64,000 nt of DNA from assembly GCA_963718295.1 (NCBI GenBank), contig CAVQYV010000005.1:25933-89932 (forward strand). The letters run 5' to 3'. The stretch is from an uncultured Methylomirabilota bacterium (lineage in GTDB: Bacteria; Methylomirabilota; Methylomirabilia; CAVQYV01). Within the stretch, counting starts at the first letter, position 1. Every line of letters starts with the position of its first letter. A program made the position numbers and the translations under genes. Of the stretch, positions 1 to 49,396 are shown piece after piece. Below the pieces are notes generated by a model, which was given only the letters and a program-made list of their open reading frames with translations, was not told the DNA's origin and did no database searches.

Positions 1-1213
1 CCCAAGGACTACTACGCGACGAAGACATACACCGACAAGCTGATCGGATTCATCGACGCCAACCGTGGCGACGGCAAACCCTTCTTCGCCTACGTCGCCC
101 CCCAGGCGCCGCACGATCCGTACCACCTGCCGCGGGAGTGGCGCACTCGCCACGTCGGCGAGTACGACAAGGGTTGGGACGCGGTGCGGCAGGAGCGGCT
201 GAAGCGACAGATCGAGCTCGGCATCCTGCCCGCGGGTACGCAGCTCTCCGAGCGAATGTGGTTTATTCCCGATCCCATCGTGCTGGCTCCGGCGACCAGG
301 GCCATCCTCGGCAAGAAGATGGAGCTCTACGCGGGAATGGTGGAGAACCTCGACTTCCACGTCGGCCGCCTGATCGACCACCTCAAGAAGATCGGCGAGT
401 ACGAGAACACGATCTTCATCGTGTTCGGCGACAACGGCGCCGAGGGAACCGACCTCTTCAAGATGATCGCGGGTCAACCCAGGCACGCGTGACTACCTCT
501 TCGCGGCGATGCAAGTGGTCGCAGACCCATCCCAACGCGTGGGGCGATCCGGGCTCCTACGTTGGCTACGGCCCGATGTGGGCGCAGGTGTCGATGACGC
601 CCTTCAGCCAGTACAAGGGCTGGCTCGCGGAAGGCGGCATCCGGAACGCGCTCATCGTCAGCGGACCGGCCGTCAAGCGGCCCAAGGGGAGCATCAACCA
701 CGGGCTCATGCATGTGGCCGACCTCATGCCGACGCTGCTCGAAATCGCCGGCGCCAGCTATCCGAAGACCCGCGAGGGGCGCGAGCTGCCGGCGCTCATC
801 GGCAAGTCCTGGGGCCCGTTACTGGCGGGCCAGGCGGAGTCGCCACGGACGGAGCAGGACTACCTCGCCTGGGAAATCTTCGGCAACCGTGCGGTGCGGC
901 AGGGGGAGCTGGAAGCTCCGCTGGGAATACAAGCCGCTCGGCAAGGGCGATTGGGAGCTTTTCAACCTCGCGGCTGATCCCGCCGAGCGCAAAGGACCTC
1001 GCCGCAGAGCACCCCGACAAGGTGAAGGGGCTGATCGCGCTCTGGGACAGCTATGTCCGGGCGAACAACGTGATCCTGCCGAGTCGCTCCCCGTACGAGA
1101 CACTGGACGACCAGCTTCCGAAGCGCGTCCCGGACGACCCGGGCTTCCCGCCGCTGATCTACAAGCGACAGTTCGTGCCGCCCAAGGAGATGCTGGCCGA
1201 CCCCAAACCTTGA
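1..1213 (+). pseudogene. Arylsulfatase (sulfatase family). 5' end lies beyond the window start, and the gene is broken into four frame segments by at least three frameshifts.
   Basis: Sulfatase-like translation spread over frames 1/3/1/2. Frame 1 (1-492) reads GDNGAEGTD. Frame 3 reads YGPMWAQVSMTPFSQYKG. Frame 1 again reads KPLGKGDWELFNLAADPAE. Frame 2 reads the C-terminus, WDSYVRANNVILP, ending at a stop at 1211-1213. GC is ~68%, higher than the rest of the window. Confidence 0.6.
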
Positions 1214-1276
1214 GCGTTGCCGATCATAGAACAAATCAGGAAGGACGGAAATCTCTTGAAAAACAACGGAGGTCCG

Positions 1277-2257
1277 ATGAAACCGGTTGCTTGGTTGGGA
1301 TTGGTCGTCGCAATGATGCTCACCTTGGTCGCGCTTTGCCCACCGCAGACCCTGGCCCAGGTTCCGGCGCGCTTCTACTGGAAGACTCTGTCGAATGCCA
1401 ATGCGGTGCCGCTCATCGTCGAGTCGTTGAGCGGCAACACGAACCCGTTCGACCCAGCTCACACCGTGACGGCAGGAGCGGACGTCGACGCTATGTTGGC
1501 CCTGCCGGGTTATGCCCGCACCTTTTCTCTGTTCGATAGAGCGGCCATGGCTGCAATCATCCTGCCCATGGGGCATGTCTCGGGCGATGTCACAGTGGCC
1601 GGCAGGACGTTCAACCAATCGGCCAACGGGTTCGGCGATCCGATGCTTGAGTTCGACATCAATGTCCTCGGCCCGCCGGCGCAGAAGAACCTCCCCGACG
1701 TCCTGCGCTATGAGCCGGGGTTCTCTGTCGACCTGCTCGCCGACCTGGCGCTGCCGATCGGCGAGTACGACAGCGACCAGCCCCTGAATCTCGGGCAGAA
1801 CCGCTGGTATGCGCGCTTGGGCGTGCCCATCATCTGGCAGCTCGGCCCGTGGGTTCCGGGCCGGCGCACGACCTTGGAGTTCCTGCCCGCCGTGTGGTTC
1901 TTCGGAACCAACGACGACTATGTCGGGCAGACGTTGAAGACCGATCCATTGTTCCAGTTGGACGCGCACGTGACGCGCGACCTGACCGAGCACTTCTGGG
2001 CGTCGCTCGACGCCACCTGGTACTACGGCGGCGAATCGAGCATCAACGGCGTCTCGGGGGAAAGACTCAACAACCTCGGCTTCGGACTCACGCTCGGGTA
2101 CAACATCAACGACAACCTGAACCTCACCGTCGGCTACAAGTCGACCGTTAACGACAACGCTCCCGGGGACCTTCGCATGGACAATTTCATGGTCTCGCTC
2201 GTGTACGGGTGGCACCCGCTCATCGAAGGCGTGCAACGGCTGAAGGGCGAGAAGTAG
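1277..2257 (+). CDS. Outer-membrane beta-barrel porter of the MetA-pathway / phenol-degradation family (Transp_MetA-like), with a signal peptide.
   Basis: Long ORF. A GGAGG sits 6 nt upstream of the ATG at 1277. Signal peptide MKPVAWLGLVVAMMLTLVALCPPQTLAQV. C-terminal aromatic-rich beta-barrel-like repeats (LGFGLTLGYNINDNLNLTVGYK...VSLVYGW). Confidence 0.6.
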   Translation: MKPVAWLGLVVAMMLTLVALCPPQTLAQVPARFYWKTLSNANAVPLIVESLSGNTNPFDPAHTVTAGADVDAMLALPGYARTFSLFDRAAMAAIILPMGHVSGDVTVAGRTFNQSANGFGDPMLEFDINVLGPPAQKNLPDVLRYEPGFSVDLLADLALPIGEYDSDQPLNLGQNRWYARLGVPIIWQLGPWVPGRRTTLEFLPAVWFFGTNDDYVGQTLKTDPLFQLDAHVTRDLTEHFWASLDATWYYGGESSINGVSGERLNNLGFGLTLGYNINDNLNLTVGYKSTVNDNAPGDLRMDNFMVSLVYGWHPLIEGVQRLKGEK

Positions 2258-2270
2258 TCATCATGACTAC
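2254..2270. repeat. 17-bp perfect palindrome (gtagtcat-c-atgactac) overlapping the stop codon of the preceding gene. It sits at the point where GC content drops from ~68% to ~58%.
   Basis: Read directly from the sequence. Followed by a low-complexity gggcgagggggtca x2 tandem. Confidence 0.6.
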
Positions 2271-2591
2271 CTCCGGTGCAAAAAGGGCGAGAAAGGGCGA
2301 GGGGGTCAAGGGCGAGGGGGTCAGACCTACACTTTGCACAACGGGCACGATAGCGGGGATGAAGCTCCCAGCCGGCAGGACGGGGCTTCCGGGAAACGAC
2401 CTATCCGCCAATTTGGATTGTGCCTTTTGCTCTTGACCCCGCCTGCGAGGCACATCTTGCAGGGCGCGGGCCGGTCGCAGAAAGACAAAGGGTAATCCAG
2501 CCCTCTGGCTTGAGGAGGCCAAAGGCAGGATCACCCTTTCCGTTGCCCAAGATCCTTACCCAAGATCAAAGGAGCCGGTACAGGATCTCTT

Positions 2592-3005
2592 TCAGATGAT
2601 GAGTTTCTTCCCCATCTCAAAAATCCCCTTGAACTCGAATGGGGCCTCCGGGTTAGCCGGCTGATCGGGCTGCCAGAAGCAAGCCACGCACTCATGGATC
2701 TCCCTTCCCAACTGCAGCATGACCAGGCAGTAATTGAACTGGCCCTTTAGCAAATCCACCCTCTCCCTCCTGGTAACCTCCAGCAGGGTTACCTTATATC
2801 CATTCTCCGATGCATTTTCCTTTGTCCAATTCTGGTTGACATATCTTTCGATGAAGGAAGAATACCCGGAGATCTCCTCTTGGCTCGCCTGCACTGCGAT
2901 CGGGCTGGCCGGAACCTCCGCAGCCGCGAAGGCAAGGGAAACATGGATCAGAGACGATCCCAGCAGGATAGCGAGCAGCCATATCGATAAGCTCACCCTT
3001 TTCAT
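2592..3005 (-). CDS. Small secreted hypothetical protein (~137 aa) with an N-terminal signal peptide.
   Basis: ORF with internal start MKRVSLSIWLLAILLGSSLIHVSLAFAAA. AAGG lies upstream of the ATG. No recognizable family. Confidence 0.4.
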   Translation of the reverse strand: MKRVSLSIWLLAILLGSSLIHVSLAFAAAEVPASPIAVQASQEEISGYSSFIERYVNQNWTKENASENGYKVTLLEVTRRERVDLLKGQFNYCLVMLQLGREIHECVACFWQPDQPANPEAPFEFKGIFEMGKKLII

Positions 3006-3348
3006 TTCATTGACCTTTTCTCCCTGCATGGCAGGGCCAACCTGCGAATTTCCTTCTCGCGAGGTCATGCGGGTTGCCTCAGGCCCCACTCGCGGCCATC
3101 CGCAAACTTTGGGACATCGTCCCCCGCCCCCGCAATTCCGATCTAAGATTATCATCTATTGCCATCGATGTCAAACTCACATCCCTTTCATGTCCGTTTC
3201 AACGCGCCCGACCGGACCCTGCAAACAGGTGCAAACAAGTGTTGACTTTGAAGGCCAGTGGCGATACGTTTACCTTGTCACCATCGTTCGCGGGGAATCA
3301 CATGCCGCATGTCCGTCTTTCAACCAACCCGATTCCCGGAGGTCCTTC

Positions 3349-5424
3349 ATGAAAAGCCATCGTTGCCTGTCGGTCCTCACTGTCATCTTAACCCTCCTTA
3401 CCCTGGTGTCCCTAAGCTCGGCGGCCTATCAGAAGCGAGAGACCGAGCCGAAGAAAGAGAGCAAAGAGGCTGCCAAGGTGGACCTTGTGCTCCCAGCTGG
3501 CTCCGTGCCCGTCCCGCTTCCCTCTCGCCGGCAGATCATCGATGCCGACAAGGGCACGAGCTGCCTTCTGTGCCACCGCATGCCCTATCCCACCGCGCCT
3601 CAGAAGCCGGCCCAGTTGGGGGAACAGGTCCTTTCCTCCATCCAAGTCACCCCGCCGTGTGCATGGCAGCTTCTGACCACGCTTCCCTTCCCGTTCAACA
3701 AGAATATGGGGGCGTGGTCCCCGGATGGAAAGCGGATCGTTTATTCCGTCAGCGTCGTTCAGGGCGATTGGGATATCTGGTTAATGGATGCAGATGGCAA
3801 GAATCGGACTCCACTCCTGACGGGCGCCACCAGAGACGTGGCCTCGGATTGGAGCCCAGATGGCAGGTACATCCTCTTTCAATCCAATCGCTCAGGGAAC
3901 GACGATATCTGGATGATGGAGCTCGCCTCCCAGAAACTGACGCAGATCACCCGAGAGGCCAGCGAAGAGACCCACCCCAGATGCTCCCCGGACGGAAAGA
4001 AGATCGTATTTCAATCCAATCGCTCCGGAAACCAGGAGATTTGGGCCATGGAGGTGGCCTCCCGCCAGTGGACGCAGCTCACCAACCACCCAGGGGTTGA
4101 CGAGAGTCCCGCCTTCAGCCCCAGCGGGGACCAGATCGTTTTCGTCTCCGATCGCGCCGGCAACAAGGATATCTGGATCATGAATTCCAATGGTAGCGGC
4201 CAGAAGGCGCTGACCCAAAAACCGGGAGAGGACGTCACCCCCAATTGGAGCCCCGACGGCCAGAAGATCGTCTATGCCCACAAACGGGGCAGTAATCTCG
4301 ATCTCTGGGTGATGAATCGGGATGGCAGCCATCCCATTCGCCTGACCACCTATCCCGACGCCGAATTCGATCCCCGCTTCAGCCCCGACGGCAAATGGAT
4401 CCTCTTCTCCTCCAATGTGCGGGGCACCTGGGATGTGCTCTGCATGCAAGTGGATGCCTCCATGATCGATCCTGAGCATAGCCCCATCAAACGCCTCACC
4501 GACAGCGAGGCGAGGGAGGTGGGAGCAATCTTCAGTCCGGATGGGCAGAAGATCGCCTACAATTCGGATGCCAAGGGCCACTGGAGCCTCTGGGTGATGA
4601 ATGGGGACGGCTCCCAGAAAAAGCAGCTCACCGCCGACGATGAAGATGCCGGTTGGCCCGCTTGGAGCCCGGATGGGAAGAAGATCGTCTATTGGGGAAC
4701 CAAGAACGGAAATCAGGATGTCTGGGTCATCGATGTGGATGGAGCGAACAAGAAGCGCCTCACCGACCATCCGGCCCTGGACGGCGATGCCCAATGGAGC
4801 CCGGATGGGAAGAAGATCGTCTTCGTCTCCGAGCGGACGGGAAAGGGCGATCTCTACCTGATGGAATCCGACGGCTCCAATCAGAAACGGCTCACCTCCA
4901 CCGAAGCCCTCGATTGGACGCCTTACTGGTCCCCGGATGGCAAGACCATCGCCTATGTCTCCAATCAGACCAAGAATTTCGAAATCTGGACCCTGAACCT
5001 GGAGACCTTGGAGGCCAAGCACCTCACCCCCAATACTTGTGGCAGCTTCGTTCCCCGCTGGAGAGCAGATGGAACCCGGATCTCCTGTGTGACCTGGCGA
5101 GGCGGTGAGTACACCATCAAGGGGAGTTTTGATCTATCCACCATGAACATCGATGGCAGCGAGAAGACGGATTTGGTCCCCTCCCCCCTCGACGAGCGAT
5201 CGGCCCGTTGGATCCCGGACGGCAGTGGCATCGTCTTCTGGTCCTGGCGGACCGGAAATCCGGAAATCTTCACCATGAAACCCGATGGGAGCGACCTGAC
5301 CCAGATCACCGATAACCTCGCCTACGATGTCTTTCCCTCCTCCAGCCCGGATGGAAAGCGGATCGCCTTCGAATCGGACCGGATGGGGAACTTCGATATC
5401 TGGGTGGTGGAGATGCCCGATTGA
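3349..5424 (+). CDS. Exported protein with an N-terminal c-type heme-binding motif (CLLCH) fused to two TolB-like PD40/WD40-like beta-propeller repeat domains.
   Basis: GGAGG lies 7 nt upstream of the ATG at 3349. Signal peptide MKSHRCLSVLTVILTLLTLVSLSSAA. Motif SCLLCHRMPYPTAP. About 14 repeats of the SPDGKxIxFxSxRxGNxDIW type, typical of PD40 repeats (PF07676). Confidence 0.7.
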   Translation: MKSHRCLSVLTVILTLLTLVSLSSAAYQKRETEPKKESKEAAKVDLVLPAGSVPVPLPSRRQIIDADKGTSCLLCHRMPYPTAPQKPAQLGEQVLSSIQVTPPCAWQLLTTLPFPFNKNMGAWSPDGKRIVYSVSVVQGDWDIWLMDADGKNRTPLLTGATRDVASDWSPDGRYILFQSNRSGNDDIWMMELASQKLTQITREASEETHPRCSPDGKKIVFQSNRSGNQEIWAMEVASRQWTQLTNHPGVDESPAFSPSGDQIVFVSDRAGNKDIWIMNSNGSGQKALTQKPGEDVTPNWSPDGQKIVYAHKRGSNLDLWVMNRDGSHPIRLTTYPDAEFDPRFSPDGKWILFSSNVRGTWDVLCMQVDASMIDPEHSPIKRLTDSEAREVGAIFSPDGQKIAYNSDAKGHWSLWVMNGDGSQKKQLTADDEDAGWPAWSPDGKKIVYWGTKNGNQDVWVIDVDGANKKRLTDHPALDGDAQWSPDGKKIVFVSERTGKGDLYLMESDGSNQKRLTSTEALDWTPYWSPDGKTIAYVSNQTKNFEIWTLNLETLEAKHLTPNTCGSFVPRWRADGTRISCVTWRGGEYTIKGSFDLSTMNIDGSEKTDLVPSPLDERSARWIPDGSGIVFWSWRTGNPEIFTMKPDGSDLTQITDNLAYDVFPSSSPDGKRIAFESDRMGNFDIWVVEMPD
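4391..5424 (+). repeat. ~1.03-kb direct repeat, ~98-99% identical to 6540-7575. It covers the 3' halves of the two PD40 paralogs.
   Basis: Only a handful of substitutions when the two stretches are compared directly. The 5' halves of the genes are only ~60% identical. Confidence 0.85.
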
Positions 5425-5507
5425 GGCAGGCGGATGAACTGGTGGATTCTCCCGTATCTTCGCCCATTTTCAACAGAGTCTCACAGCACTTTCAGGGGGG
5501 TCCTTCG

Positions 5508-7587
5508 ATGAAGAGAAAACAGAAGATGTGGATGCTTTTCGCTGTGATGGGCTTCCTCGGCCTGATGATCCCTGAGTCCCAGGCCTATATGGATCAGATT
5601 TTGGCCGCCAAGGCCAAGGCGGCACTCGGAGAGGCCGTCCTCCAGATGGGGGCGGTACCCTCCCCCTCGCCCTCCCGGCGTCAGATCATCGATGCGGACA
5701 AGGGGGCTTCCTGCCTGGTGTGCCACCGCATGCCCTATCCAACAGCTCCCCAGAAACCTGCCAAAGTTGGCGAACAACCCCTGTCGTCCATTCAAACCAA
5801 TCCCCCCGGTGGATGGCGACTCCTGACCTCTCTCACCGCCTCCGTAAATGCGATCGCCGGTGGATGGAGCCCCGATGGCAAGCAGGTCTGCTACTCCTTG
5901 AACCTTTCCGGGAAGGATTGGGATATATGGACGGTCGATTCCGATGGCAAGAACCGACGCCCCCTGATCGCCAGCTCTGCCGCGGAGTTAGCCCCCGACT
6001 GGAGTCCGGACGGAAAGTCAATCGTCTTTCAATCCAATCGTGCAGGAGATCATGATGTCTGGATGATGGAGCTTGGCTCCAAGAAGCTGACCCAGGTCAC
6101 TCAGGGCCCAGGAGATGACATCATGCCCAGGTGGTCACCGGATGGCAAGGGGATCGTCTTTCAATCCAATCGGTCGGGCAACGAGGAGATCTGGCTCCTG
6201 GAGCTGGCGACCCAGAAACTAACTCAGCTGACGAACCATCCGGCAAAGGACGAGAACCCGATCTTCTCCCCGCAAGGGGATCGGATCTATTTCGTCTCCG
6301 ATCGCTCTGGCAACAAGGATATCTGGGCCATGAAGCTGGATGGCTCCGATCCCCAGGCATTGACCCACGCCCCGGAGGACGACATCGCCCCCCACCCCTC
6401 CTCCGACGGCCAGAAGATCGTCTTCTCCCATAAGCAGGGGGACAACCTGGACCTGTGGGCCATGGACGCCGATGGGAGCCATCCGATCCGTCTCACCACC
6501 CATCCTTCGGCAGAGCTGGGACCCTACTTCAGCCCGGACGGCAAATGGATCCTCTTCTCCTCCAATGTGCGGGGCACCTGGGATGTGCTCTGCATGCAAG
6601 TGGATGCCTCCATGATCGATCCTGAGCATAGCCCCATCAAACGCCTCACCGACAGCGAGGCGAGGGAGGTGGGAGCAATCTTCAGTCCGGATGGGCAAGA
6701 AGATCGCCTACAATTCGGATGCCAAGGGCCACTGGAGCCTCTGGGTGATGAATGCGGATGGCTCCCAGAAGAAGCAGCTCACCGCCGACGATGAAGATGC
6801 CGGTTGGCCCGCTTGGAGCCCGGATGGGAAGAAGATCGTCTATTGGGGAACCAAGAACGGAAATCAGGATGTCTGGGTCATCGATGTGGATGGAGCGAAC
6901 AAGAAGCGCCTCACCGACCATCCGGCCCTGGACGGCGATGCCCAATGGAGCCCGGATGGGAAGAAGATCGTCTTCGTCTCCGAGCGGACGGGAAAGGGCG
7001 ATCTCTACCTGATGGAATCCGACGGCTCCAATCAGAAACGGCTCACCTCCACCGAAGCCCTCGATTGGACGCCTTACTGGTCCCCGGATGGCAAGACCAT
7101 CGCCTATGTCTCCAATCAGACCAAGAATTTCGAAATCTGGACCCTGAACCTGGAGACCTTGGAGGCCAAGCACCTCACCCCCAATACTTGTGGCAGCTTC
7201 GTTCCCCGCTGGAGAGCAGATGGAACCCGGATCTCCTGTGTGACCTGGCGAGGCGGTGAGTACACCATCAAGGGGAGTTTTGATCTGTCCACCATGAACA
7301 TCGATGGCAGCGAGAAGACGGATTTGGTTCCCTCCCCCCTCGACGAGCGATCGCCCCGTTGGATCGCGGACGGCAGTGGCATCGTCTTCTGGTCCTGGCG
7401 GACGGGAAATCCGGAGATCTTCACCATCAGGCCCGATGGGAGCGACCTGACGCAGATCACCGATAATCTGGCCTACGATGTCTTTCCCTCCTCCAGCCCG
7501 GACGGAAAGCGGATCGCCTTCGAATCGGACCGGATGGGGAACTTCGATATCTGGGTGGTGGAGGTGCGTGATCACGTGATCAGTTGA
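5508..7587 (+). pseudogene. Tandem paralog of the preceding cytochrome-motif/PD40 beta-propeller protein. Interrupted by a 1-nt insertion near 6696, which may be a sequencing error.
   Basis: RBS GGGGGG. Signal peptide MKRKQKMWMLFAVMGFLGLMIPESQA. Motif SCLVCHRMPYPTAP. The frame breaks at 'gggcaagaagatc' (copy 1 has 'gggcagaagatc'). The ORF 6691-7587 then continues in another frame with the same PD40 repeats. Confidence 0.6.
6540..7575 (+). repeat. Second copy of the ~1.03-kb near-identical direct repeat (partner of 4391-5424).
   Basis: Same as above. Confidence 0.85.
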
Positions 7588-7596
7588 ATGGAAGAT

Positions 7597-7640
7597 CCAA
7601 AAGAATTGGCCTCCCATACAAGGAGGCCAATTCTTTTGCA
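7597..7640. terminator. Perfect 18-bp stem-loop (ccaaaagaattggcctcc / ggaggccaattcttttg) downstream of the PD40 paralog. The stem ends in TTTT.
   Basis: Inverted repeat read from the sequence. Lies between the convergent genes at 7587 (+) and 7922 (-). Confidence 0.5.
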
Positions 7641-7761
7641 AGCAAACTCACCACCCCTGGATCCCGCCTCAGCCCACTTCACCTTCCATTCGGACTAGTG
7701 CCCCGTCTCAGAAATTCATTGAAGAAGTTTTCTGGCCTTATCCTCTCACCCTCCCCTTTAT

Positions 7762-7830
7762 CCCCTCCCCTCAAGGGAGGGGAAAATCGAAGGGATTGCA
7801 GTAATTTCCCTCCCCATTGATGGGGGAGGG
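7762..7830. repeat. Two adjacent G/C-only 8-bp-stem hairpins (cccctccc-ctcaa-gggagggg and ccctcccc-attgat-ggggaggg) in a convergent intergenic region.
   Basis: Read from the sequence. No adjacent U-tract on either strand. Confidence 0.5.
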
Positions 7831-7921
7831 CGAGGGTGGGGGTGAAAAGAACATATGAAACCTACTTGTGGGACCAAACACTAGGTGCGGTGAGCGGGGG
7901 TTCCCAAGCAACGCATGGGCT

Positions 7922-9067
7922 TCATCCTACGGAATCCCTCCTTCCAGCCCGACAAAACCCCTCCTGCGGCTCGTGCACTTTCATGCCTTGAAGTCCAGAC
8001 CTCATGACCGCTTTCCTCAGACCAGGATTGAAGATAAAGTGGGACTTCAAGTTTTTCAGAAATATGTTCCTCCTCAATTGTCTTGTCTGCTCGTAGTAAC
8101 GCTCCTCGAAGCCATGCAGGGATGTGCGTAGACTTTCCGCCAGGATCAGCGCACTTCGAAATGCATAACTGATTCCTTCAGCAGAACTCGGACTGATCCA
8201 GCCCCCAGCCTCGCCCAGTAAGGCAATCCCGCCGCCGCCGGTGGACAGCTGCCGTGCCTTCACCGGCCGTAAGATATAGGCGCCCTCTCGCCATAGGGTC
8301 TTCCCAAACTGGAAGCCGTAGTGCCTCAGCTTCCTTTTCAACAGTTCGAACTTCTCAGATGTCTCTGCCTTCGGGTGAAGCGCTGCGCCGATGAGGAGGT
8401 GGTCGCCCTTTGGAATCATCCAGCAATAATAATCGGTGATTTCTGGGTCAAATAAGGAGGTGAAATAGGGGAAATCGCTCTCTCCTTCGACCCATTCCTG
8501 TATTGCGAAATATCTTTTCGGAAAAGCGTGGTTCGCTGACGATTGGGACCGAACCCTTGAGGACGCGCCGTCTGCTCCTACCAGGATTTTCGCCTTCTCT
8601 ACATAGCTCTTATGGTCCTGGAGGAGGATGAGCCTGAAACCGTCGTTTTCCAACGAGTATGATTTCAGCCGACAGGCGACTCTTATTTCCACGCTGGAGG
8701 GGATCAGAGACAATAGCCAGCCGTCGAATCTCTGCCGATTGATGTTGATATAGTGACGCTGATAATATCTCTCCAGGCCTTGCTGGATATCTATCGCCTT
8801 GACAACGAAAAGCTGAGGTTCTTCCAAAACGCTTTTGGGCAGACCCAGTCCCAATTGGGACAGCATCCCTTGTGCATCAGGAGCCAAAAGTCCACCACAG
8901 CACTTTCCTGCGGAAAAACTCTCAGGAGAGCTTATGATCTGCCTCTTATCGACCAGCAGCACTTTGTAGCTCTCCCCAATCAATCTCGCCAGGGTGGCTC
9001 CGGCTGGGCCCCCTCCAATGATAGCTACATCATACACGGGCCTTCTTGCTTCCCGGAGGCTGGGCAT
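7922..9067 (-). CDS. FAD-dependent oxidoreductase (geranylgeranyl-reductase / NAD(P)/FAD-binding family).
   Basis: N-terminal Rossmann motif YDVAIIGGGPAGATLA...VLLVDKR. Central GADGASSRVR. The start at 9067 is preferred. The ORF extends to 9094 and overlaps the ubiE 3' end. Confidence 0.7.
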   Translation of the reverse strand: MPSLREARRPVYDVAIIGGGPAGATLARLIGESYKVLLVDKRQIISSPESFSAGKCCGGLLAPDAQGMLSQLGLGLPKSVLEEPQLFVVKAIDIQQGLERYYQRHYININRQRFDGWLLSLIPSSVEIRVACRLKSYSLENDGFRLILLQDHKSYVEKAKILVGADGASSRVRSQSSANHAFPKRYFAIQEWVEGESDFPYFTSLFDPEITDYYCWMIPKGDHLLIGAALHPKAETSEKFELLKRKLRHYGFQFGKTLWREGAYILRPVKARQLSTGGGGIALLGEAGGWISPSSAEGISYAFRSALILAESLRTSLHGFEERYYEQTRQLRRNIFLKNLKSHFIFNPGLRKAVMRSGLQGMKVHEPQEGFCRAGRRDSVG

Positions 9068-15823: not shown

Positions 15824-15844
15824 GGGTACACAAAAAAGACCCTG

Positions 15845-15998
15845 AACTCCGACCCGGCAACTCCTACAGCACTTGGTGCCATGGAGGCTGGGCGGTAGGG
15901 CTCATCTGGAAACGGGTGCGCCTCCCGTGCTTGGAAAGGAGTTCGAGTAGCAGCCGTGATCGGCCGGCGTGAGACTCATCTCCGTCGGCCTTCTTTTT
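15845..15998 (+). ncRNA. Candidate structured RNA, copy 1 (riboswitch-like leader or sRNA). A ~100-nt conserved domain is followed by an intrinsic terminator (8-bp G/C stem plus TTCTTTTT).
   Basis: ~90% identical to 17836-17940. The predicted helices (aactcct/aggagtt, agcac/gtgct, ggaggc/gcctcc) are preserved in copy 2 with G-U compensating changes. The terminator stem ggccggcg...cgtcggcc also co-varies between the copies. Confidence 0.45.
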
Positions 15999-16211: not shown

Positions 16212-17609
16212 ATGAAAAGAGCCAGATTGCTATCGATGATCGGTTTTGCGTTACTTGCGATGGGAATTGCGGCTGCCATTGCCTGGTCAGCCTACAGTTC
16301 CCATCAGAATGATGAGGATATTGCCAAGTTTCTGCAAGTTTATCCCTTTGCTCGCTCCACCAAGCTGGATGATTGCTCCCTTTGCCACCCGGGCGGAACC
16401 CTGAGTGGTAAGAGTTACGGAAGTTGCGATTATTGCCACGTCGCCTATGGGCTCAAGCCTCCTCATGGGCCAGTTCCTTTGAATCCCTATGGATTGGCTT
16501 ACAAGGATGCAGGGCGAAGCGTAGAGGCCATCCGCAGCATCGAGAGCGCCGACTCAGACGGAGATACCTTCGGCAACCTCGCTGAAATACAGGCCCTCGC
16601 TTTTCCGGGGGATCCCCGAGATTATCCGGGATTGGTTGCTGCCACTGCCGTATCTTTGAATCCAAAGCAGATCGAGCAACTCCCTCGTCACCAACAGTTT
16701 CTTTTCTTGAATGCCTCCAAATCCCAGGATTTCTATGCACAATATGGGGGGGTCAAGGTTGAAGACATCTTGAACAAGGTGCGTATTGCCCGGGGGGCAA
16801 CCCAGATTACCGTCTTTGCCCCGGATGGCTTTTCCAAAACCTTCCCCATCGACGCACCCGATCCCCAAATCCCTCCCAATATCAGCTACGACGTCTCGGG
16901 CCCTTATCCCAAGGGGGCCTACTACGGGGAATTGAATTTCGTGGATTATCCTTTGTCGCCGGTCTATCCGACGGGAAAGAAGATCCCCGATGAGCTCCGT
17001 TTGATCCTCGCTTATCAGAGGGATGGCAAGCCATTGAGCGTAGGCAAGCTGGTGCCAGATTCGAGGAATCCGGCAAGATTGGTGCTGGAGGGAGAGGGGC
17101 CTTACCGTCTGGTAAATCCCCAGAAGATAGCCGGAAGTCCTGATCGTCCGTCTACCTCTACTCCCGTCGGCGACGGCTGGGACTACGATCCCAACAAGGA
17201 CCACAACGCAGGCTCTTCGGTTCGCAGCGTGACGGCAATCCGGGTGGAGCCTCTTCCGAAAGGGACCACTGATTTCAGCTGGACGGAGGGGGGATGGAAC
17301 CTCGTAGATCAAGGCAGAGTGGTGATTTATGGGGCCATCGACCCCGTCAAGTATCCCATCAGGGGATCGATTTTGGACCCCAAAGGAAATCCGGTGGCTG
17401 GTGTCCAGATCTCCTTTGCTTTGGCCTCCATGAGCCAGGTGGGGATGGCTACCTCAGGGGCTGATGGGAAGTTCTGGAAAGATCTGCCCCAAGGGCAATA
17501 TGTCGTCGCTCCCATCAAAGTTGGATACATCTTCAAGCCTGACGCGGTACGAATCGACCTCTCCCATGGGGCAGACAGAATAGACTTCAAGGCCTATCCT
17601 GTCCCGTAA
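16212..17609 (+). CDS. Secreted diheme c-type cytochrome domain protein with a C-terminal carboxypeptidase-regulatory-like (transthyretin-fold) domain.
   Basis: Signal peptide. Two CxxCH motifs (CSLCH, CDYCH). C-terminal GADGKFWKDLPQGQYVV, typical of CarbopepD_reg. The middle region is weakly reminiscent of a sulfite-oxidase-family Moco domain (uncertain). Confidence 0.65.
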   Translation: MKRARLLSMIGFALLAMGIAAAIAWSAYSSHQNDEDIAKFLQVYPFARSTKLDDCSLCHPGGTLSGKSYGSCDYCHVAYGLKPPHGPVPLNPYGLAYKDAGRSVEAIRSIESADSDGDTFGNLAEIQALAFPGDPRDYPGLVAATAVSLNPKQIEQLPRHQQFLFLNASKSQDFYAQYGGVKVEDILNKVRIARGATQITVFAPDGFSKTFPIDAPDPQIPPNISYDVSGPYPKGAYYGELNFVDYPLSPVYPTGKKIPDELRLILAYQRDGKPLSVGKLVPDSRNPARLVLEGEGPYRLVNPQKIAGSPDRPSTSTPVGDGWDYDPNKDHNAGSSVRSVTAIRVEPLPKGTTDFSWTEGGWNLVDQGRVVIYGAIDPVKYPIRGSILDPKGNPVAGVQISFALASMSQVGMATSGADGKFWKDLPQGQYVVAPIKVGYIFKPDAVRIDLSHGADRIDFKAYPVP

Positions 17610-17821: not shown

Positions 17822-17835
17822 TGGACAAATATCGA

Positions 17836-17988
17836 AACTCCGACCCGGCAATTCCTAAAGCACCCGGTGCCATGGATGCCGGGCGGTAGGGCTCATCTGG
17901 AAACGGATGCGCCTCCCGTGCTTGGAAAGGAGTTCGAGTGGCAGCTCAGATTGGCCGACGTGGGGCTCAACTCCGTTGGCCTTTTTTG
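17836..17988 (+). ncRNA. Candidate structured RNA, copy 2 (paralog of 15845-15998), with its own intrinsic terminator (ggccgacg...cgttggcc plus TTTTTT).
   Basis: See copy 1. It is followed by ~240 nt of divergent leader and then the porin gene. Confidence 0.45.
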
Positions 17989-18226
17989 CTGTTACTCAGG
18001 TGCGGCCCGCAGCTGACACCCCCAGAGAATCCCTTCCCCTCTCCTTCCCAGCCCGGCCCTTTATCCTCCCGGCAAGAGAGCTACCCAGCTCTCTTCCGCC
18101 CATCCAGGCCTACGGCCTTAATTAACAAGAAAGGAGGGATGCCAAAGAGGAAAGAAAAACGGGCAGGGAATATCGTTTCAGAACCTTGACCTTTTGCCCC
18201 TAACAAGTGAGAGAAAGGAGTCTCTT

Positions 18227-19783
18227 ATGAAAGGCATCCGAGGCACCCTCATCGCAATCATTGCCTTGGCCCTTCTCTTCTTCCTCCCCGGCTCGGGATT
18301 CGCGGCGGAAAAGTCTCTGGCCGACATCCTCAAGGAAAAGGGGATCCTCACCGAGGAAGAATACCAACAAGTCAAGGAGTTGGAGGAATCCCAGAAGGCG
18401 GGAGAGGCCAAAAAGGCAGAAGAGGCGACCAAGCAGGCAGAGGAAGCAACCAAGCAGGCAGAAGAGGCGACCAAGCAGGCCGAAGAGGCAACCAAGAAGG
18501 CAGAAGAGCTGGCCAAGAAGGCGGCGGCCGAGAAACCCGCCCCCGTGGTTGCCGGCTACAAGAAAGGGTTCTTCATTCAGACCCCGGATGAGAAGTACAA
18601 GCTGGTCTTCAACGGATACGTCCGGGGCATGCTTGAGCTTTACGAGAACAACACCTCCCAGGACAACCAATTCGATATCAACCGGGCCCGCCTGAACCTC
18701 AAAGGATATTATGGGAAGTACTGGATGGGGGAGGTATCGGCAGAGCTCACCACCGCCAGCGATAGCAGATTCCTCAAGTACGCCTATATCAATAACAGCT
18801 ATCTCCCCTACTTGCAGGCTCGGGTCGGACAGTTCAAGGCCCCCTTCAGCCGGGAATATCTGATCACCCTGGCCGATGTGGAGACCATCATGCGGGCCAT
18901 GATCACCGATGCCGGCGGAACCTTACCCAAGTATGACATCGGTGCCATGCTGTGGAGCCCTAACGTCTTCAACGGGCTGCTCTGGTATGGAGCGGGAATC
19001 TTCAATGGCAACGGGGCCAATAATTTCGATTCCAACGATGACATGGATTTCATTGGCCGCCTGGTCGTGGCCCCCTTTGCCCCCACCCAGATCTCCGCTT
19101 TGAAGGGCCTGGAATTCGGGGGTTCCGTGCAAACTGGAAGGCAGACCCCTAACCAGAGCTATTCGCCCAGGCTCCCCACCAATTGGTCCCTATTCGGGAA
19201 CAACAAAACCAGCTTCAGTTACCGCGGACAGCGGGACCGCTACGCCCTGGAGGCATCCTACAAGTGGGGTCCCCTCACCCTGCGGGGGGAATGGATCTAC
19301 CAGCGCCTGGAGCGGGAGAATCAGGTCAGGGTCGATCCGACTACCAATGCCATCAGCTCCTCGGGAGAGCTGATGGATGCCCCGGATCTGATCTCCTGGG
19401 GCTGGTACGTCCTGGGCAGCTATTTTGTCTGGGGGAATCAGGATAAAGGCATCCAACTGGTAGCCCGCTACGAGCAGTTCGATGTGGATGATGATCCAGC
19501 CGCCGAGAAGTACCGTAAGGCCAATCCCATGGCGGAGAACTCGGTCACCAACCCCTGGGGCAATGACCTCAACATCAGGGGAAATACGGCGGATGTCCTG
19601 ACTCTGGGCATCAACTATTTCCCCTATCCCAATGTCCGATTGGCCTTCAACTGGTTCTATCAGACCCTCGACAACACGTACACCACCGATAAGATCAAGC
19701 ACAACAACGATGGAGGTGAGTTCTTCACCGGTGGAGGGGGAGCCATGAATTCCTTCTGGCTCATGGCCCAGGTGAAGTGGTAA
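18227..19783 (+). CDS. Phosphate/anion-selective porin of the OprO/OprP family, with an N-terminal coiled-coil heptad-repeat region.
   Basis: GGAG RBS. Signal peptide MKGIRGTLIAIIALALLFFLPGSGFA. Four copies of (AEEATKQ). A long beta-barrel region with a C-terminal aromatic residue (…AQVKW). Confidence 0.7.
   Translation: MKGIRGTLIAIIALALLFFLPGSGFAAEKSLADILKEKGILTEEEYQQVKELEESQKAGEAKKAEEATKQAEEATKQAEEATKQAEEATKKAEELAKKAAAEKPAPVVAGYKKGFFIQTPDEKYKLVFNGYVRGMLELYENNTSQDNQFDINRARLNLKGYYGKYWMGEVSAELTTASDSRFLKYAYINNSYLPYLQARVGQFKAPFSREYLITLADVETIMRAMITDAGGTLPKYDIGAMLWSPNVFNGLLWYGAGIFNGNGANNFDSNDDMDFIGRLVVAPFAPTQISALKGLEFGGSVQTGRQTPNQSYSPRLPTNWSLFGNNKTSFSYRGQRDRYALEASYKWGPLTLRGEWIYQRLERENQVRVDPTTNAISSSGELMDAPDLISWGWYVLGSYFVWGNQDKGIQLVARYEQFDVDDDPAAEKYRKANPMAENSVTNPWGNDLNIRGNTADVLTLGINYFPYPNVRLAFNWFYQTLDNTYTTDKIKHNNDGGEFFTGGGGAMNSFWLMAQVKW
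18416..18520 (+). repeat. Tandem 21-nt repeat (about 5 units, gcagaagaggcgaccaagcag) encoding EEATKQA heptads inside the porin gene.
   Basis: Read from the sequence. Confidence 0.75.
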
Positions 19784-19845: not shown

Positions 19846-20720
19846 ATGCTTCGAGACACCGGGAATATCTTGAAAGTGGGGTATCTGCTGTTGCCCATAT
19901 GCTTCTGGCTGGTCCTGCCTGCCTTGGTGCAGGCCCAGGGCCAATATGACGGGGCCTACGGGAGTGGCGCGAATCCTTTCATCCTGGCCACCGGCAGCCC
20001 GGGGGAATTGGGACTGCTGAAGGCGCTGGGAGAGGCCTACGCCACGAAGGAGAATGCTACGCTCCTCTGGAAGAAGGCGGGCTCGGGGGAAGCCCTGAAA
20101 CTGCTGAAAGAAAAAAGGTGGACGCCATCATGGTCCACGATCCTGATGGGGAGAAGAAGGCCATTGCGGAGGGATGGGCGGTGGGGCGCACCCTGATCGG
20201 ATCCAACGAGTTCTTCATCGTGGGTCCGGTCGGCGACCCTGCTGGCATCAGCCAGGCCAAGTCTGCCGCACAGGTCTACCAGCGAATTGCAGCAAGTCGT
20301 TCCAAATTCTTCTCCCGAGGGGATCATTCGGGAACCCACAAGAAGGAATTGGCGATCTGGAAGAAGGCGGGGATCGAACCCCAAGGTGAGTGGTACCTAA
20401 TTGCGGGCGGATTTATGAGGGCAACCCTGAAACGAGCCAATGATGAACAAGGATATTTCATGACCGATAGCAGCACCTGGATCATGGAAAAGGGCAATTT
20501 GCCCGGCCTGAAGGTCCTGTTCAGGGGAGACAAGTTCTTGGTGAACACCTATCACGCCCTCTGCCAGCCGCCAAAGGCGACTCCGGGCGCTCCATGGGCT
20601 GCTGAATTCATTGAGTTCGTGGCCTCAGCGGATGGGCAGGAGATCATCCGCACTTACGGGAAGGAGGACTTCAAAGAGGCACTTTACAACGACGCCGTCT
20701 ATGCCAAGCAATACGAATGA
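19846..20720 (+). pseudogene. tupA: Tungstate ABC transporter substrate-binding protein TupA (copy 1). A frameshift sits in an A6 run near 20112-20117.
   Basis: Two ORFs, 19831-20196 and 20118-20720, together align over the full length with the downstream tupA paralog (LLKALGEAY...GSGEALKL / VDAIMVHDPD...). Signal peptide present. Confidence 0.65.
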
Positions 20721-20739
20721 TGAGATGAAGGAGATCAAG

Positions 20740-21588
20740 ATGAGAACTCACCAATGGAGATTTATTCTCCTCGCGGTTCTTTCGTTGTTGCTGGTCTTCT
20801 CTCTTCCGGCCTTTGCCCAGGAGAGATTAAAGCTCGCGACCACGACCAGCACGGAAAATACCGGGTTACTAAAGGCCCTGCTTCCCCCATTTGAAGAGAA
20901 GAATCATTGTAAGGTGGATGTAATCGCCGTGGGATCTGGGCAATCCATCAAGCTGGGCGAACAGGGAGACGTGGATGTCGTCCTGGCTCATGCCCCGGAT
21001 CTGGAAGAGAAATTCATGAAGGACGGCTTCGGGGTGAATCGCCGCTATGTCATGTATAATGACTTCATCATTGTCGGTCCCCCGGAGGATCCGGCGCAGA
21101 TCAAAGGCCTGAAAGAGGCCAAGGTGGCCTTCAAGAGGATCGCCGACACCCAGTCTTCCTTCATCTCCCGGGGAGACAAATCGGGGACCCATGTCAAGGA
21201 GCTCGCGATTTGGAAGGCCGCAGGGATCAAGGTGGAAGGCATGAAGGGGAAATGGTATCTGGAGGCGGGCAAGGGAATGGGAGAGGTCTTGAATATGGCC
21301 CATGAGAAAAAGGCCTATACCCTTGCCGATCGAGGGACCTACCTCGCCTATCAGGATAAGACCAGCTCGGTCATCCTATGTGAGGGAGACCCGATGCTCT
21401 TCAATCCCTATCACATCATGGCGGTGAACCCGGCCAAGTTCCCCCATGTGAAATTTGAATTGGCCACCAAGCTGGTCGAATGGGTCACCTCCCCCGCGGG
21501 ACAGAAGATCATTCGAGAGTTCAAGGACAAGAAGGGAAATCCTCTATTCGTCCCCACCGCCGAGGTTAAAGGGACAGGCACCCATTGA
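20740..21588 (+). CDS. tupA: Tungstate ABC transporter substrate-binding protein TupA (copy 2, intact).
   Basis: AGGAG RBS 6 nt upstream. Signal peptide. TupA-like motifs TTTSTENTGLL, IAVGSGQSIKLGEQGDVDVVLAH, YNDFIIVGP. Confidence 0.8.
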   Translation: MRTHQWRFILLAVLSLLLVFSLPAFAQERLKLATTTSTENTGLLKALLPPFEEKNHCKVDVIAVGSGQSIKLGEQGDVDVVLAHAPDLEEKFMKDGFGVNRRYVMYNDFIIVGPPEDPAQIKGLKEAKVAFKRIADTQSSFISRGDKSGTHVKELAIWKAAGIKVEGMKGKWYLEAGKGMGEVLNMAHEKKAYTLADRGTYLAYQDKTSSVILCEGDPMLFNPYHIMAVNPAKFPHVKFELATKLVEWVTSPAGQKIIREFKDKKGNPLFVPTAEVKGTGTH

Positions 21589-23080: not shown

Positions 23081-23911
23081 ATGGCTTTAGTGCGCGAACG
23101 CGACGGGCGCCGCCTGCATGTCAAAAGCAAGTTGATGGGAGAGAGTCTGGTCAGCAAATCATTCGTTGAGGGGTTAGAAATAGCCCCTCAACAGCGTCTT
23201 TTCCCGGATGTGAATATCCTCAAGGTAGGAGGGCAATCCATTTGTGACCGCGGGGTGAAGGCGGTCCCCGATGTGATTCAAGAGATCGTTGCCAATAAAG
23301 GGGAGCACAAGATGCTGGTGACCACCGGGGGTGGGACGCGGAGCCGCCACATCTATTCCATCGGGCTGGAGCTGGGCATGCCCACCGGGATCATTGCCAA
23401 ATTTGGAAGTTCGGTCTCGGAACAGAACGCCCTCCTCATCAGCACGCTCCTCTCCCCCTGGGGAGGAATCAAGATCGGCCACGACGAGATCGTCAAGCTC
23501 CCCACTTACTTTGCCCAGGGCTGTATTCCGGTCACCCACGGCATGCCTCCCTACGACTTTTTTGCCATTCCGCCCGAAAAGGGACGGATCCCCGTCCATC
23601 GAACCGATGTGGGCACATTGCTCTTGGCCGATCTGATCGGTGCCAGAAGCTGCATCTTCATAAAGGACGAGAAGGGACTTTACACGGACGATCCCAAAAA
23701 GAACCCCAAAGTGGAATTCATCGCTGAGATTGGGGCCAAGGAGCTTCTGCGCAGAGGTCTGGACGATCTGATCATCGAACGGCCCTGCCTGGAGATCCTT
23801 CAGAATAGCCAGGTAATCACCCGGATTTACATCATCAACGGTCTCGAGAAAGGGAATATCACCCGAGCCCTCCAGGGCGAAAATGTAGGGACCATCATTT
23901 ACAAAGAATAG
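23081..23911 (+). CDS. Amino-acid-kinase-family protein resembling the molybdenum/tungsten storage protein subunits MosA/MosB (UMP-kinase fold).
   Basis: Motifs LKVGGQSICDRG, VTTGGGTRSRHIYSIG, GSSVSEQNA, and C-terminal NGLEKGNITRALQGENVGTII. It is ~276 aa, the same size as MoSto subunits. AGGAG RBS. It is embedded between tupA and tupBC. Confidence 0.65.
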   Translation: MALVRERDGRRLHVKSKLMGESLVSKSFVEGLEIAPQQRLFPDVNILKVGGQSICDRGVKAVPDVIQEIVANKGEHKMLVTTGGGTRSRHIYSIGLELGMPTGIIAKFGSSVSEQNALLISTLLSPWGGIKIGHDEIVKLPTYFAQGCIPVTHGMPPYDFFAIPPEKGRIPVHRTDVGTLLLADLIGARSCIFIKDEKGLYTDDPKKNPKVEFIAEIGAKELLRRGLDDLIIERPCLEILQNSQVITRIYIINGLEKGNITRALQGENVGTIIYKE

Positions 23912-24092
23912 TGGGCGACCCGAACCATTTCCTCTAAAGGCCTTGGGTCCATGAGGAATGGTCGATAGGGTATTGTGGGAAACGACAATGCCTCCCGTGT
24001 TTGGAAAGGGTGAAGACGTGCTGAGTAGAATGCCAGTGCCTGATCCAACGAGGCCACTGGCATTTGTTTCTTGCCCCAACTGAGGAATACAG

Positions 24093-45847: not shown

Positions 45848-46205
45848 CTACTCCTTCTCCCGCAGGCGCATGATCTCCTGGTAGATTGCCCTCGCCTGCT
45901 GCTCAGAGCAGCTTTCCGTCGAAAAGGGGGGCATGATGCTGTCGGATCCATCACGCGCCTTAGGGCTTCGGATATAGGACAGAAAGGTGTCGAAGTCCTC
46001 CAACTGAGGCGCTCCTTTCAGGGGCAGGTGGGGCTTGAATACATTGCCGCCATCGGGGTGACAGGCGCCGCAGGTTTGGTTGAATTGTTCCGCGGCGGGC
46101 TGGCCTTCCGGCACCTCCGCCGCCATCAGCTTCCCCTGGGCTTTTACAGGGCTTCTCCCCAGTGGGCAGGGAGATCAAAAAAAGAAGGGTGATGACAAAT
46201 AGCAT
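45848..46205 (-). pseudogene. Small class I c-type cytochrome (CGACH). Its signal peptide and heme domain are in different frames (the shift lies between a T7 run and the heme motif).
   Basis: ORF 45960-46244 gives the signal MLFVITLLFLISLP. ORF 45848-46126 gives AAEVPEGQPAAEQFNQTCGACHPDGGN...MPPF (CxxCH plus a distal Met region). Confidence 0.5.
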
Positions 46206-46297
46206 CACACACCGGGGGAAATCGGATAGAGTTCCCTTTCGCATTGGAATTGACCTCCGGGGCGATTTGTCAATCTACGGATAAGACCAAGCTGCGC

Positions 46298-47507
46298 TCA
46301 TAGACCCAGGATGTGGGCTCGTACGGTGGAAAATATCCCGGAAGGGGTGAGGGCCGGGATTTCTTTGACCCGCTGAAATGTCTTGGTATCGAGGATAACT
46401 ACTTTGTTTTCCTTGTAACAAGACACATAGATATTCTTTCCCTTGGGGGTGAATGCCATGTGGAAGACCCGATCACCGATCTCCAAGGTCTTGATGACCT
46501 CCAGCTTCAGAGAATCGATGACCTGCAAAAACCGGTGATTCTCGCCCGAGAAGTTGACCCACACATGGCGGCCATCTGGGCTGGCCATGGAGAACATGGG
46601 GGTGCCTGCCAGATCGATGGATTTCATAAGCTTCCAGGAACCTACCTCATAAACCGCCAGACGCTCCTCCCCCACCACGGGCGCGAAGAGAAGATTGTTG
46701 GCGATGGCCCATCCGCCCAGATGAGGGACCTTCGTCACGGCCACCTTAGGGCTTTTCCCGTGAGGGCTCTTGCAGGGAAATCTCGTCCACCTTGTCGAGG
46801 GTCCATGTATCCAGCCTCGCCAGGTGATCGGAGTGATACAGGGCGGCGATATAATATCGGCCGTCGGGAGTGAGTAACGCATCAAAAGGCATTCTGCCCA
46901 CATTCCAGAACTTCTTGATCACCGGAAACTCGGGTTGATCGGCATCCAGAACCCAGATGCCGTCGGCATCCATCAGGGAAAAGATCAGAAGGTTCCCGGG
47001 AGCCTCCACTATACCCACGGCTCGGGAAGGGATCTCTCCCCCGCCCCCTTCCTTATCCTCTCTCAGCGCTGGAACGGTGTGCACGATGGTGAGATTTTCG
47101 GCATCGACGATCTTCACATCAGCCGGCTTATAGTTGGCTACGGCGACGAATCGGTTGTCTTGGGTCACCGCCAGACCGATGGAGCTCTCACCCACTTTGA
47201 TCCTGGCGGTGCACTTCAGGGCCAGAAGATCCAGCTTATTGAGCCAGCCATCGCGAGTGACGAGATAGGCATAGCGGGCGTCGTGGGAAAAGGAGATTGT
47301 GGCATGGTGCAACACACCCAGATCGGGGATTCGCCCCAGGATTTCATGGCGAAGGGAGTCGACCACGACGACGCTGGAATTTTCTCGTTCGATGATGACC
47401 ATCAGAGCCCCGGTCCCCCACTGGGCCCCGGAAATGGCGGGGAGAAGAAGGAGCCCGCAAATCACTGCCCAGACTGCCCACACGCCGATGCACAAGTATC
47501 GCTTCAT
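46298..47507 (-). pseudogene. nirF: Cytochrome-d1-type 8-bladed beta-propeller protein (NirF-like heme d1 biosynthesis/insertion protein) with a frameshift near 46765-46790.
   Basis: Two ORFs, 46746-47507 and 46298-46903, both carry cd1-propeller-like repeats. An N-terminal signal peptide is present and there is no heme c motif. The genomic context is next to nirJ and a cd1 nitrite reductase. Confidence 0.55.
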
Positions 47508-47510
47508 GGC

Positions 47511-48710: not shown

Positions 48711-48727
48711 CGATCTCTACCCTACCC

Positions 48728-49386: not shown

Positions 49387-49396
49387 GAATGGATCC

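Follow-up and report, generated by a model that had tools for sequence, protein, structure and literature searches.

The DNA analysed here is a 64,000-nt stretch of a genome assembly from an uncultured Methylomirabilota bacterium (GCA_963718295.1, contig CAVQYV010000005.1, positions 25,933 to 89,932; 'the window'). Near one end it carries a tandem pair of genes, gene 1 and gene 2 (copies 1 and 2 below), each encoding an exported protein in which an N-terminal arm with a CxxCH motif precedes two beta-propellers of PD40 repeats. We find that a common PD40 double propeller has received a conserved, exported CxxCH fragment, and that this is not the fusion of a cytochrome domain. The proteins with this arm are a real family, rare, uncharacterised and of narrow distribution. 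What the pair shows of tandem duplication, conversion and frameshift is ordinary genome dynamics.

In both proteins a proline-rich arm of ~90 residues lies between the signal peptide and the propellers. A Sec-type signal peptide, judged by eye, is present in each N-complete homologue. After a variable stretch the arm has the conserved block P-x-P-x-PSRRQIIDADKG-x-x-CL-x-CH-R-M-PYPTAPQKP ... GGWRLLT (gene 1 residues 54-110), with the invariant core PSRRQIIDADKGxxCLxCHRMPYPTAPQ. Both cysteines of CxxCH are invariant in the family, and 32 of the 33 distinct module sequences matched by pattern have the histidine, as does L011/P0020, which the pattern missed (L and P numbers denote loci and proteins). 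The single histidine exception, P0004 at locus L002, reads CGKCL, with both cysteines kept and a codon CTT where CAY is found elsewhere; the L002 assembly also has frameshifts and runs of N. Between copies 1 and 2, for which synonymous divergence (dS) is saturated, the ratio of nonsynonymous to synonymous divergence (dN/dS) is lowest in this module (0.118), compared with 0.197 in propeller 1 and 0.62 in the signal peptide plus linker.

AlphaFold2 (AF2) run on a mixed alignment leaves residues 21-116 without secondary structure, at a predicted local distance difference test score (pLDDT) of 30-48. When only family members are aligned, over the N-terminal 375 residues, the arm is again unfolded, bar a low-confidence helix at residues 69-75. 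Docking of the arm on the propeller was sought in both runs, and neither gave a confident conformation. Pfam and NCBIfam searches with the isolated 121-residue N-terminus returned nothing relevant and no cytochrome model, even at E<=1.

The body behind the arm is well defined. Pfam PD40 (PF07676) matches 12 repeats per protein (E=1.3e-108), and 13 blades, arranged as six plus seven, are counted from SPDG-type motifs and from the strands in the AF2 model; the motifs of propeller 1 are at residues 124, 169, 213, 257, 301 and 345. AF2 builds two confident propellers, with pLDDT mostly 80-97. The motif of the linker between them begins at residue 366, within the span of propeller 1, such that an invariant Met366 stands just upstream of the linker and Met372 inside it. 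Outside the cytoplasm the double PD40 propeller is a very common module: at E<=1e-20 it is matched by more than 5,000 database proteins, typically with 30-37% identity. In many of these it is fused to a winged helix-turn-helix (wHTH) domain (PF00486) or a Ser/Thr kinase, under the annotation 'Tol biopolymer transport system component'. Such COG0823-type periplasmic proteins, in which the propellers are often C-terminal to the wHTH or kinase domain, share the repeat and the two-propeller body with the window proteins over ~75% of their length; the window proteins differ in being free and secreted, and have the arm where a membrane anchor or a signalling domain would otherwise be. The hydrazine synthase alpha model of NCBIfam scored 67 bits, its cut-off being 800; this match covered propeller blades only and was discarded.

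A Foldseek search of solved structures with the model gave as best matches repeat propellers, Tricorn protease, S9 peptidases and TolB, and no haem protein among the matches. Tricorn beta6-beta7 (1k32) and TolB (e.g. 2hqs, 1crz), both among the top matches, have similar PD40 blades (E 1e-15 to 1e-18). The Tricorn propellers have six and seven blades, as here, and TolB is six-bladed. These neighbours, matches to the propeller models DPPIV_N and S9_N, and a TolB score (NCBIfam TIGR02800) of 441 bits, above its cut-off of 343, would fit ordinary TolB orthologues of the Tol-Pal system, or peptidase propellers, in which the CxxCH is incidental. The TolB score, however, is summed over five stretches across two propellers, 13 blades in all, and not over a single six-bladed one. 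The Pfam search found no TolB_N domain (PF04052), and there are no tol-pal genes near the pair in the window or near the gene in nine other loci; the gene product is therefore not TolB. Nor is it like Tricorn in having a protease or PDZ domain: the chain stops three residues past the last blade and has no hydrolase or protease domain, and the peptidase models that match are those of N-terminal propellers only. Since, in addition, CxxCH is strongly constrained across the family, we regard the TolB or peptidase explanation as almost certainly wrong.

A preliminary description of the pair, made from the letters alone, had noted a signal peptide and a conserved CxxCH block in both genes, and had named a lack of CxxCH conservation in homologues as a refuting outcome; the first two hold, and the homologues keep the motif. 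Its PD40 repeats are also there, although not the ~14 that it counted (12 by Pfam, 13 by motifs and strands). The haem-binding module that it saw fused to them finds no support as a cytochrome c module in Pfam, NCBIfam or the predicted fold, and gene context offers no evidence for the suggested redox or sensor scaffold.

The family is small. A profile of the arm, a 69-column module, was searched against 1.84 billion representative proteins and matched 20, of which 18 are family members, one (P0028) belongs to the family with only the start of the module kept, and one (P0027) is a false positive of low complexity. Scanning 185,579 species-representative genomes gave ten loci, seven of them with intact genes of ~690 residues. 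Several genomes have two or three copies (L003 and L004; L007, L009 and L012). The metagenome-assembled genomes (MAGs) concerned bear the submitter labels Methylomirabilota/NC10, 'delta proteobacterium', 'Desulfobacteraceae' or unclassified. Among the best 120 propeller relatives only P0029, a close family member, has the CxxCH arm; the exact gene 1 product was absent from the contig index; and literature searches on PD40 or TolB-like proteins with CxxCH found no such fusion described. In four short members of 112-183 residues (P0007, P0022, which is L010 9857-10432, P0024 and P0028) the CxxCH arm, or its start, is joined straight to the last one or two PD40 blades. These are either recombination deletions between repeats or shortcuts taken by short-read assemblers across the WSPDGK blades.

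What the motif does is the central question, and what we say of haem attachment, haem docking and any redox or sensor role we infer from sequence. We hold with moderate confidence that a covalent haem on a flexible arm is the most likely reading. The window encodes canonical c-type cytochromes (a cd1-type nitrite reductase, a dihaem cytochrome c and a monohaem cytochrome c), and these imply a periplasmic haem-attachment system, by which the cell would attach haem to periplasmic CxxCH motifs. By their signal peptides the PD40 proteins are predicted to reach the compartment in which haem is attached. The Ccm system (System I) is reported to need little beyond CXXCH, even in 12-residue peptides (PMC3601427). 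Among solved structures the arm profile matches only c7-type trihaem domains of Geobacter GSU1996 (3ov0, E=0.0017), and the alignment extends upstream of the motif (PKRYTMLDMEKGKSCGACH in c7 against PSRRQIIDADKGxSCLxCH). Precedents exist both for the recruitment and for the tether. Cache sensor domains (sCache_haem) gained a cytochrome-derived CxxCH fragment and bind haem c, a recruitment to a non-redox scaffold (PMC12889525), and PgcA carries its haems on low-complexity tethers (PMC10570954).

The protein would be Sec-exported, soluble and periplasmic, its mature form a predicted rigid double propeller of 6+7 blades behind the flexible arm. The propellers would most likely be a binding platform, and the CxxCH of the arm most likely the site at which the cell's cytochrome c maturation machinery attaches haem c covalently. 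The result would be one haem, exposed for the most part and held to the propeller by a tether. This haem may dock on the propeller and take its distal ligand from it, or may be five-coordinate; it could report or transfer redox state to the binding partner of the propeller. The motif was apparently recruited as a short fragment of a c7/c3-type multihaem protein and not as a cytochrome domain. A bolder proposal, which we put forward only tentatively, is that these proteins are an unrecognised class of periplasmic haemoprotein, in which one c-type haem on a bare c7-like fragment, borne by a disordered arm, would dock reversibly on the 6+7 PD40 double propeller without any cytochrome fold, to act as a redox- or gas-gated binding platform or as an electron-transfer adaptor.

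Several observations weigh against a haem on the arm. Besides the lack of any Pfam or NCBIfam cytochrome match and of a fold for residues 21-116 in either alignment, there is no conserved distal ligand near the motif, Met78 being replaced by Ile or Leu in several members, and P0004 has CxxCL in place of CxxCH. The c7 similarity is weak and lies mostly in CxxCH and D-x-[DE]-K-G, with single stretches non-significant (i-Evalues >=0.37). In the loci compared no conserved neighbour gene indicates a redox pathway.

Some of the same observations would suit an arm that is a docking or structural peptide, with the cysteine pair forming a disulfide or a small metal site (Zn, Cu or Fe), RRQIID binding a partner by beta-strand addition in the manner of the N-terminal TolA-binding peptide of TolB or a TonB box, and the histidine kept for another reason. 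An unstructured arm that matches no cytochrome model and has no conserved distal ligand is what such a peptide would look like; P0004 retains both cysteines where Leu replaces the histidine; and conservation reaches far past CxxCH in both directions (PSRRQIIDADKG ... RMPYPTAPQ), as for a binding epitope. We also take RRQIIDA to resemble the mature N-terminus of Escherichia coli TolB, EVRIVIDSG. Against this stand the histidine itself, found in all but one of ~35 distinct sequences, the exception coming from the flawed L002 assembly; the adjacent Cys and His of CxxCH, which are poor geometry for a single metal ion; and the solved-structure matches of the arm, which are haem sites only. Where cytochrome c maturation is active, as the window cytochromes imply, a CxxCH in the periplasm is moreover expected to receive haem (PMC3601427). 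The docking peptide is accordingly a possible explanation, clearly less probable than the tethered haem.

If the haem is there, the arrangement has partial likenesses elsewhere. The cd1 nitrite reductases (NirS/NirN), one of which the window encodes, are likewise exported, with an N-terminal CxxCH followed by a beta-propeller; theirs is a full helical cytochrome c domain and an 8-bladed propeller, whereas in the PD40 proteins there is only the motif, on an arm that does not fold, and a D1 domain is lacking. The fused cytochrome-porin Cyc2 also has a single N-terminal CxxCH before an all-beta body, which there is an outer-membrane barrel. The c7 trihaem domains of GSU1996 (3ov0, 3oue, 3ouq, 1rwj) share the local pattern P-x-R-x(4)-D-x-[DE]-K-G-x-S-C-x-x-C-H, but only ~20 residues align, and the arm lacks both the c7 fold and the other two haem sites. 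The 'haem-tethered redox strings' of PgcA have similar low-complexity, proline-rich tethers, but the haems of PgcA sit in folded helical monohaem domains (PMC10570954); no homology of the PD40 proteins to PgcA or Cyc2 was detected. In sCache_haem (DUF3365/Tll0287), too, a short CxxCH fragment is carried on a normally cofactor-free extracytoplasmic scaffold and the motif defines the family; the scaffold there is Cache and haem binding was shown by experiment, whereas here the scaffold is a propeller and the haem is predicted from sequence (PMC12889525).

Genes 1 and 2 are genuine old paralogues, anciently duplicated in tandem. In a global alignment they are 59-78% identical per 100 nt up to positions 4386/6536, with a 5' dS of ~1.3 (saturated). 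At 4386/4387 identity steps abruptly from ~70% to 98-100%, and over the next 1,034 nt the copies are set apart by 19 substitutions and one indel (98.1% identity). The first 749 nt of this tract differ by three substitutions and the indel only, and its tail (5136-5420) is less alike than its core (94% versus 99.6%). The corresponding protein identities are 63% at residues 57-346 and 98.5% at residues 347-688. Long antisense open reading frames (ORFs) lie inside both genes (3892-5022, 6682-7641, 4965-5309 and 7116-7460, all on the - strand), and every related locus has them too; they have the look of shadow ORFs in a GC-rich repeat, kept only via conservation of the sense strand.

We read the identical 3' ends as gene conversion, by which the 3' kilobase of gene 1 was recently overwritten by gene-2-type sequence, and not as assembly collapse, because tandem pairs recur and the trees of the two halves are incongruent. 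Tandem family pairs are found in three other assemblies: L001 (ENA ERZ25039502), L005 (a short-read MEGAHIT MAG with two intact genes) and L013 (ENA ERZ25039461, contig_102260), the last colinear with window positions 1-7556 at 94.9% identity. The copies of L005 are 58-87% identical per 100 nt over their full length; those of L013 are 86-99% identical in their 3' halves and 56-81% in their 5' halves. The N-half tree has two paralogue clades, one joining gene 1 with L005_2, L003 and P0029 and the other joining gene 2 with L005_1, L004 and L001_A. In the C-half tree both window genes fall in the second, gene-2-type clade, and segment-wise identities agree. The more divergent tail of the tract suggests more than one conversion event. 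The indel, retained inside a stretch of 100% identity, is awkward for a simple single-tract conversion and counts against our reading in that form.

The order of the paralogues is not constant: the 'AYQKRETEPKKE' type comes first in the window and in L013, and the 'YLEQILAAK' type in L005 and L001 (spans compared: window 3349-7587, L005 9881-14165, L001 7807-12099, all with the same small - strand gene upstream). The L013 contig, 117 kb long, stops inside copy 2, ~30 nt before its stop codon (locus end 14234, window 7556), and the repeat probably broke that assembly.

The duplicate with identical 3' ends could instead be an artefact of assembly, a mis-join or duplicated collapse, with the frameshift of copy 2 a consensus error of long reads. 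Indel-type breaks do occur elsewhere in the window, as in the sulfatase at 1-1213, split here and intact in the L013 orthologue; the public relatives L001, L002 and L013 are rich in frameshifts; and there is the L013 contig that terminates within copy 2. The copies cannot, however, be one locus, because their 5' halves differ by 25-40%, and 19 substitutions separate even their 3' ends. The same pair with the same flanks is present in the three other assemblies, short-read L005 among them. An artefact of this kind is very unlikely, the more so in view of the indel described below.

That indel, at 6696/6697, is one added A: copy 1 reads GGGCAGAAG and copy 2 GGGCAAGAAG. The frame of gene 2 runs on to a stop at 6794, and homologous reading resumes in the next frame, 6698-7587, which is still open. 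With the extra A deleted, gene 2 would encode 692 residues, 78% identical to gene 1 overall. Given the sulfatase broken across frames and the noisy public relatives, a random error at 6697 had been plausible. The insertion is probably real, because copy 2 of L013, an independent assembly of a ~95%-identical strain, shares the extra A at exactly this base, whereas copy 1 is correct in either assembly, with identical local sequence; the insertion is then probably older than the split of the two strains. This probably makes gene 2 a pseudogene, or else a split gene in which exchange with gene 1 preserves the 3' part. We also considered programmed frameshifting at GGGCAAGAAG but rejected it, there being no slippery run. 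For the copies as a whole, the diverged 5' half, the near-identical last ~1.03 kb and the frame-breaking 1-nt insertion of the preliminary description are all borne out, and of the causes that it listed for the identity, conversion is upheld and collapse is not. Coordinates are collected in Table 1.

Table 1. Features of the PD40 gene pair and of the denitrification-type cluster, in window coordinates
Feature	Position	Strand	Description and basis
Gene 1 (copy 1)	3349-5424	+	Intact ORF, 691 codons; signal peptide, CxxCH arm, 6+7 PD40 blades
Predicted Sec signal peptide, copy 1	3349-3426	+	MKSHR, hydrophobic core, SAA|Y; by eye; AF2 helix at residues 3-19
Conserved arm module, copy 1	3508-3678	+	Residues 54-110, PVPLPSRRQIIDADKGTSCLLCHRMPYPTAPQKP...WQLLT; alignments, dN/dS 0.118, pLDDT 30-48
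CxxCH (CLLCH), copy 1	3562-3576	+	Candidate haem c attachment site
First PD40 propeller, copy 1	3697-4449	+	6 blades, residues ~117-367; Pfam, AF2 pLDDT 80-97
Inter-propeller linker, copy 1	4450-4524	+	MQVDASMxDP...LKRLTDSEAREVGA; family conservation
Second PD40 propeller, copy 1	4525-5412	+	7 blades, residues ~393-688; Pfam, AF2, SPDG motifs
Homogenised (putatively gene-converted) tract, copy 1	4387-5420	+	Identity step and C-half tree
Gene 2 (copy 2)	5508-7587	+	Architecture like gene 1, split by +1 nt frameshift
Gene 2, frame a	5508-6794	+	ORFs and translation
Gene 2, frame b	6698-7587	+	ORFs and translation
CxxCH (CLVCH), copy 2	5712-5726	+	
Homogenised tract, copy 2	6537-7571	+	Partner of 4387-5420; identity profile
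Extra A breaking the copy 2 frame	6697	+	Copy alignment; shared with L013 copy 2
Monohaem cytochrome c	45848-46174	-	
NirF-like D1 propeller	46746-47507	-	Truncated-looking
Dihaem cytochrome c	48728-49396	-	
cd1 NirS/NirN-like protein	49397-50977	-	Cytochrome_CBB3 E=1.9e-13, Cytochrom_D1 E=1e-60

The window pair sits between a gene for a small exported protein (2592-3155, -) and one for a flavin adenine dinucleotide (FAD) oxidoreductase with methyltransferases; a sulfatase and a MetA-like barrel are further neighbours. Neighbourhoods were compared by all-against-all ORF clustering of 13 loci, followed by Pfam searches of the immediate neighbours. No conserved neighbourhood emerged, neighbours being shared only among three or four closely related syntenic loci: the small upstream gene and a downstream Porin_O_P gene are common only to the close relatives L001, L005 and L013, and in L003-L011 the gene is flanked by unrelated, varying and often oppositely oriented genes. 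DUF362 genes occur within 10 kb at four loci, at variable distance and orientation. A promoter and terminator scan of 3100-7950 found nothing exceeding shuffled expectation.

Three riboswitches for molybdenum cofactor (Moco) or tungsten cofactor lie in the window within 8 kb of one another (15835-15957, 17826-17948 and 23906-24026, all +). The first precedes a protein with two CxxCH motifs and a CarboxypepD_reg domain (16212-17609), the second a Porin_O_P-like gene (18194-19783), beyond which a PBP_like_2 binding protein is encoded (20611-21588), and the third genes from ~24093. Relatives have them too (L001 12514-12636 and 18548-18669; L005 14340-14456), and in both L001 and L005 a riboswitch comes directly after the PD40 pair. 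We rejected this Moco riboswitch as a control element of the PD40 genes, because it lies downstream of both and drives the genes that follow.

Among other features of the region, the window cytochromes belong to a denitrification-type cluster at 45848-50977 (-). At 1-1213 (+) the sulfatase is represented by the 3' portion of its gene, an arylsulfatase gene split over three frames, and its L013 orthologue (6023-7867) encodes 614 residues; the split is due either to indel errors or to a pseudogene. Outside the window, L013 has ~5 kb upstream of the pair a small gene (4242-4595, +) with faint Paired_CXXCH_1 and Cytochrom_c3_2 matches, followed by a TPR/HEAT protein, both between two sulfatase genes.

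The conversion and frameshift are mainly a caution for the annotation of noisy long-read MAGs. The immediate importance of the family is modest, because it is small, confined to uncultivated lineages and without operon partners. If its CxxCH carries haem, however, a common non-redox PD40 scaffold would have been made a haemoprotein by a fragment of ~30 residues, with no cytochrome domain. That would parallel the recent finding in Cache sensor domains, and motif-level scans for exported CxxCH would then reveal haemoproteins that domain-based annotation has overlooked.

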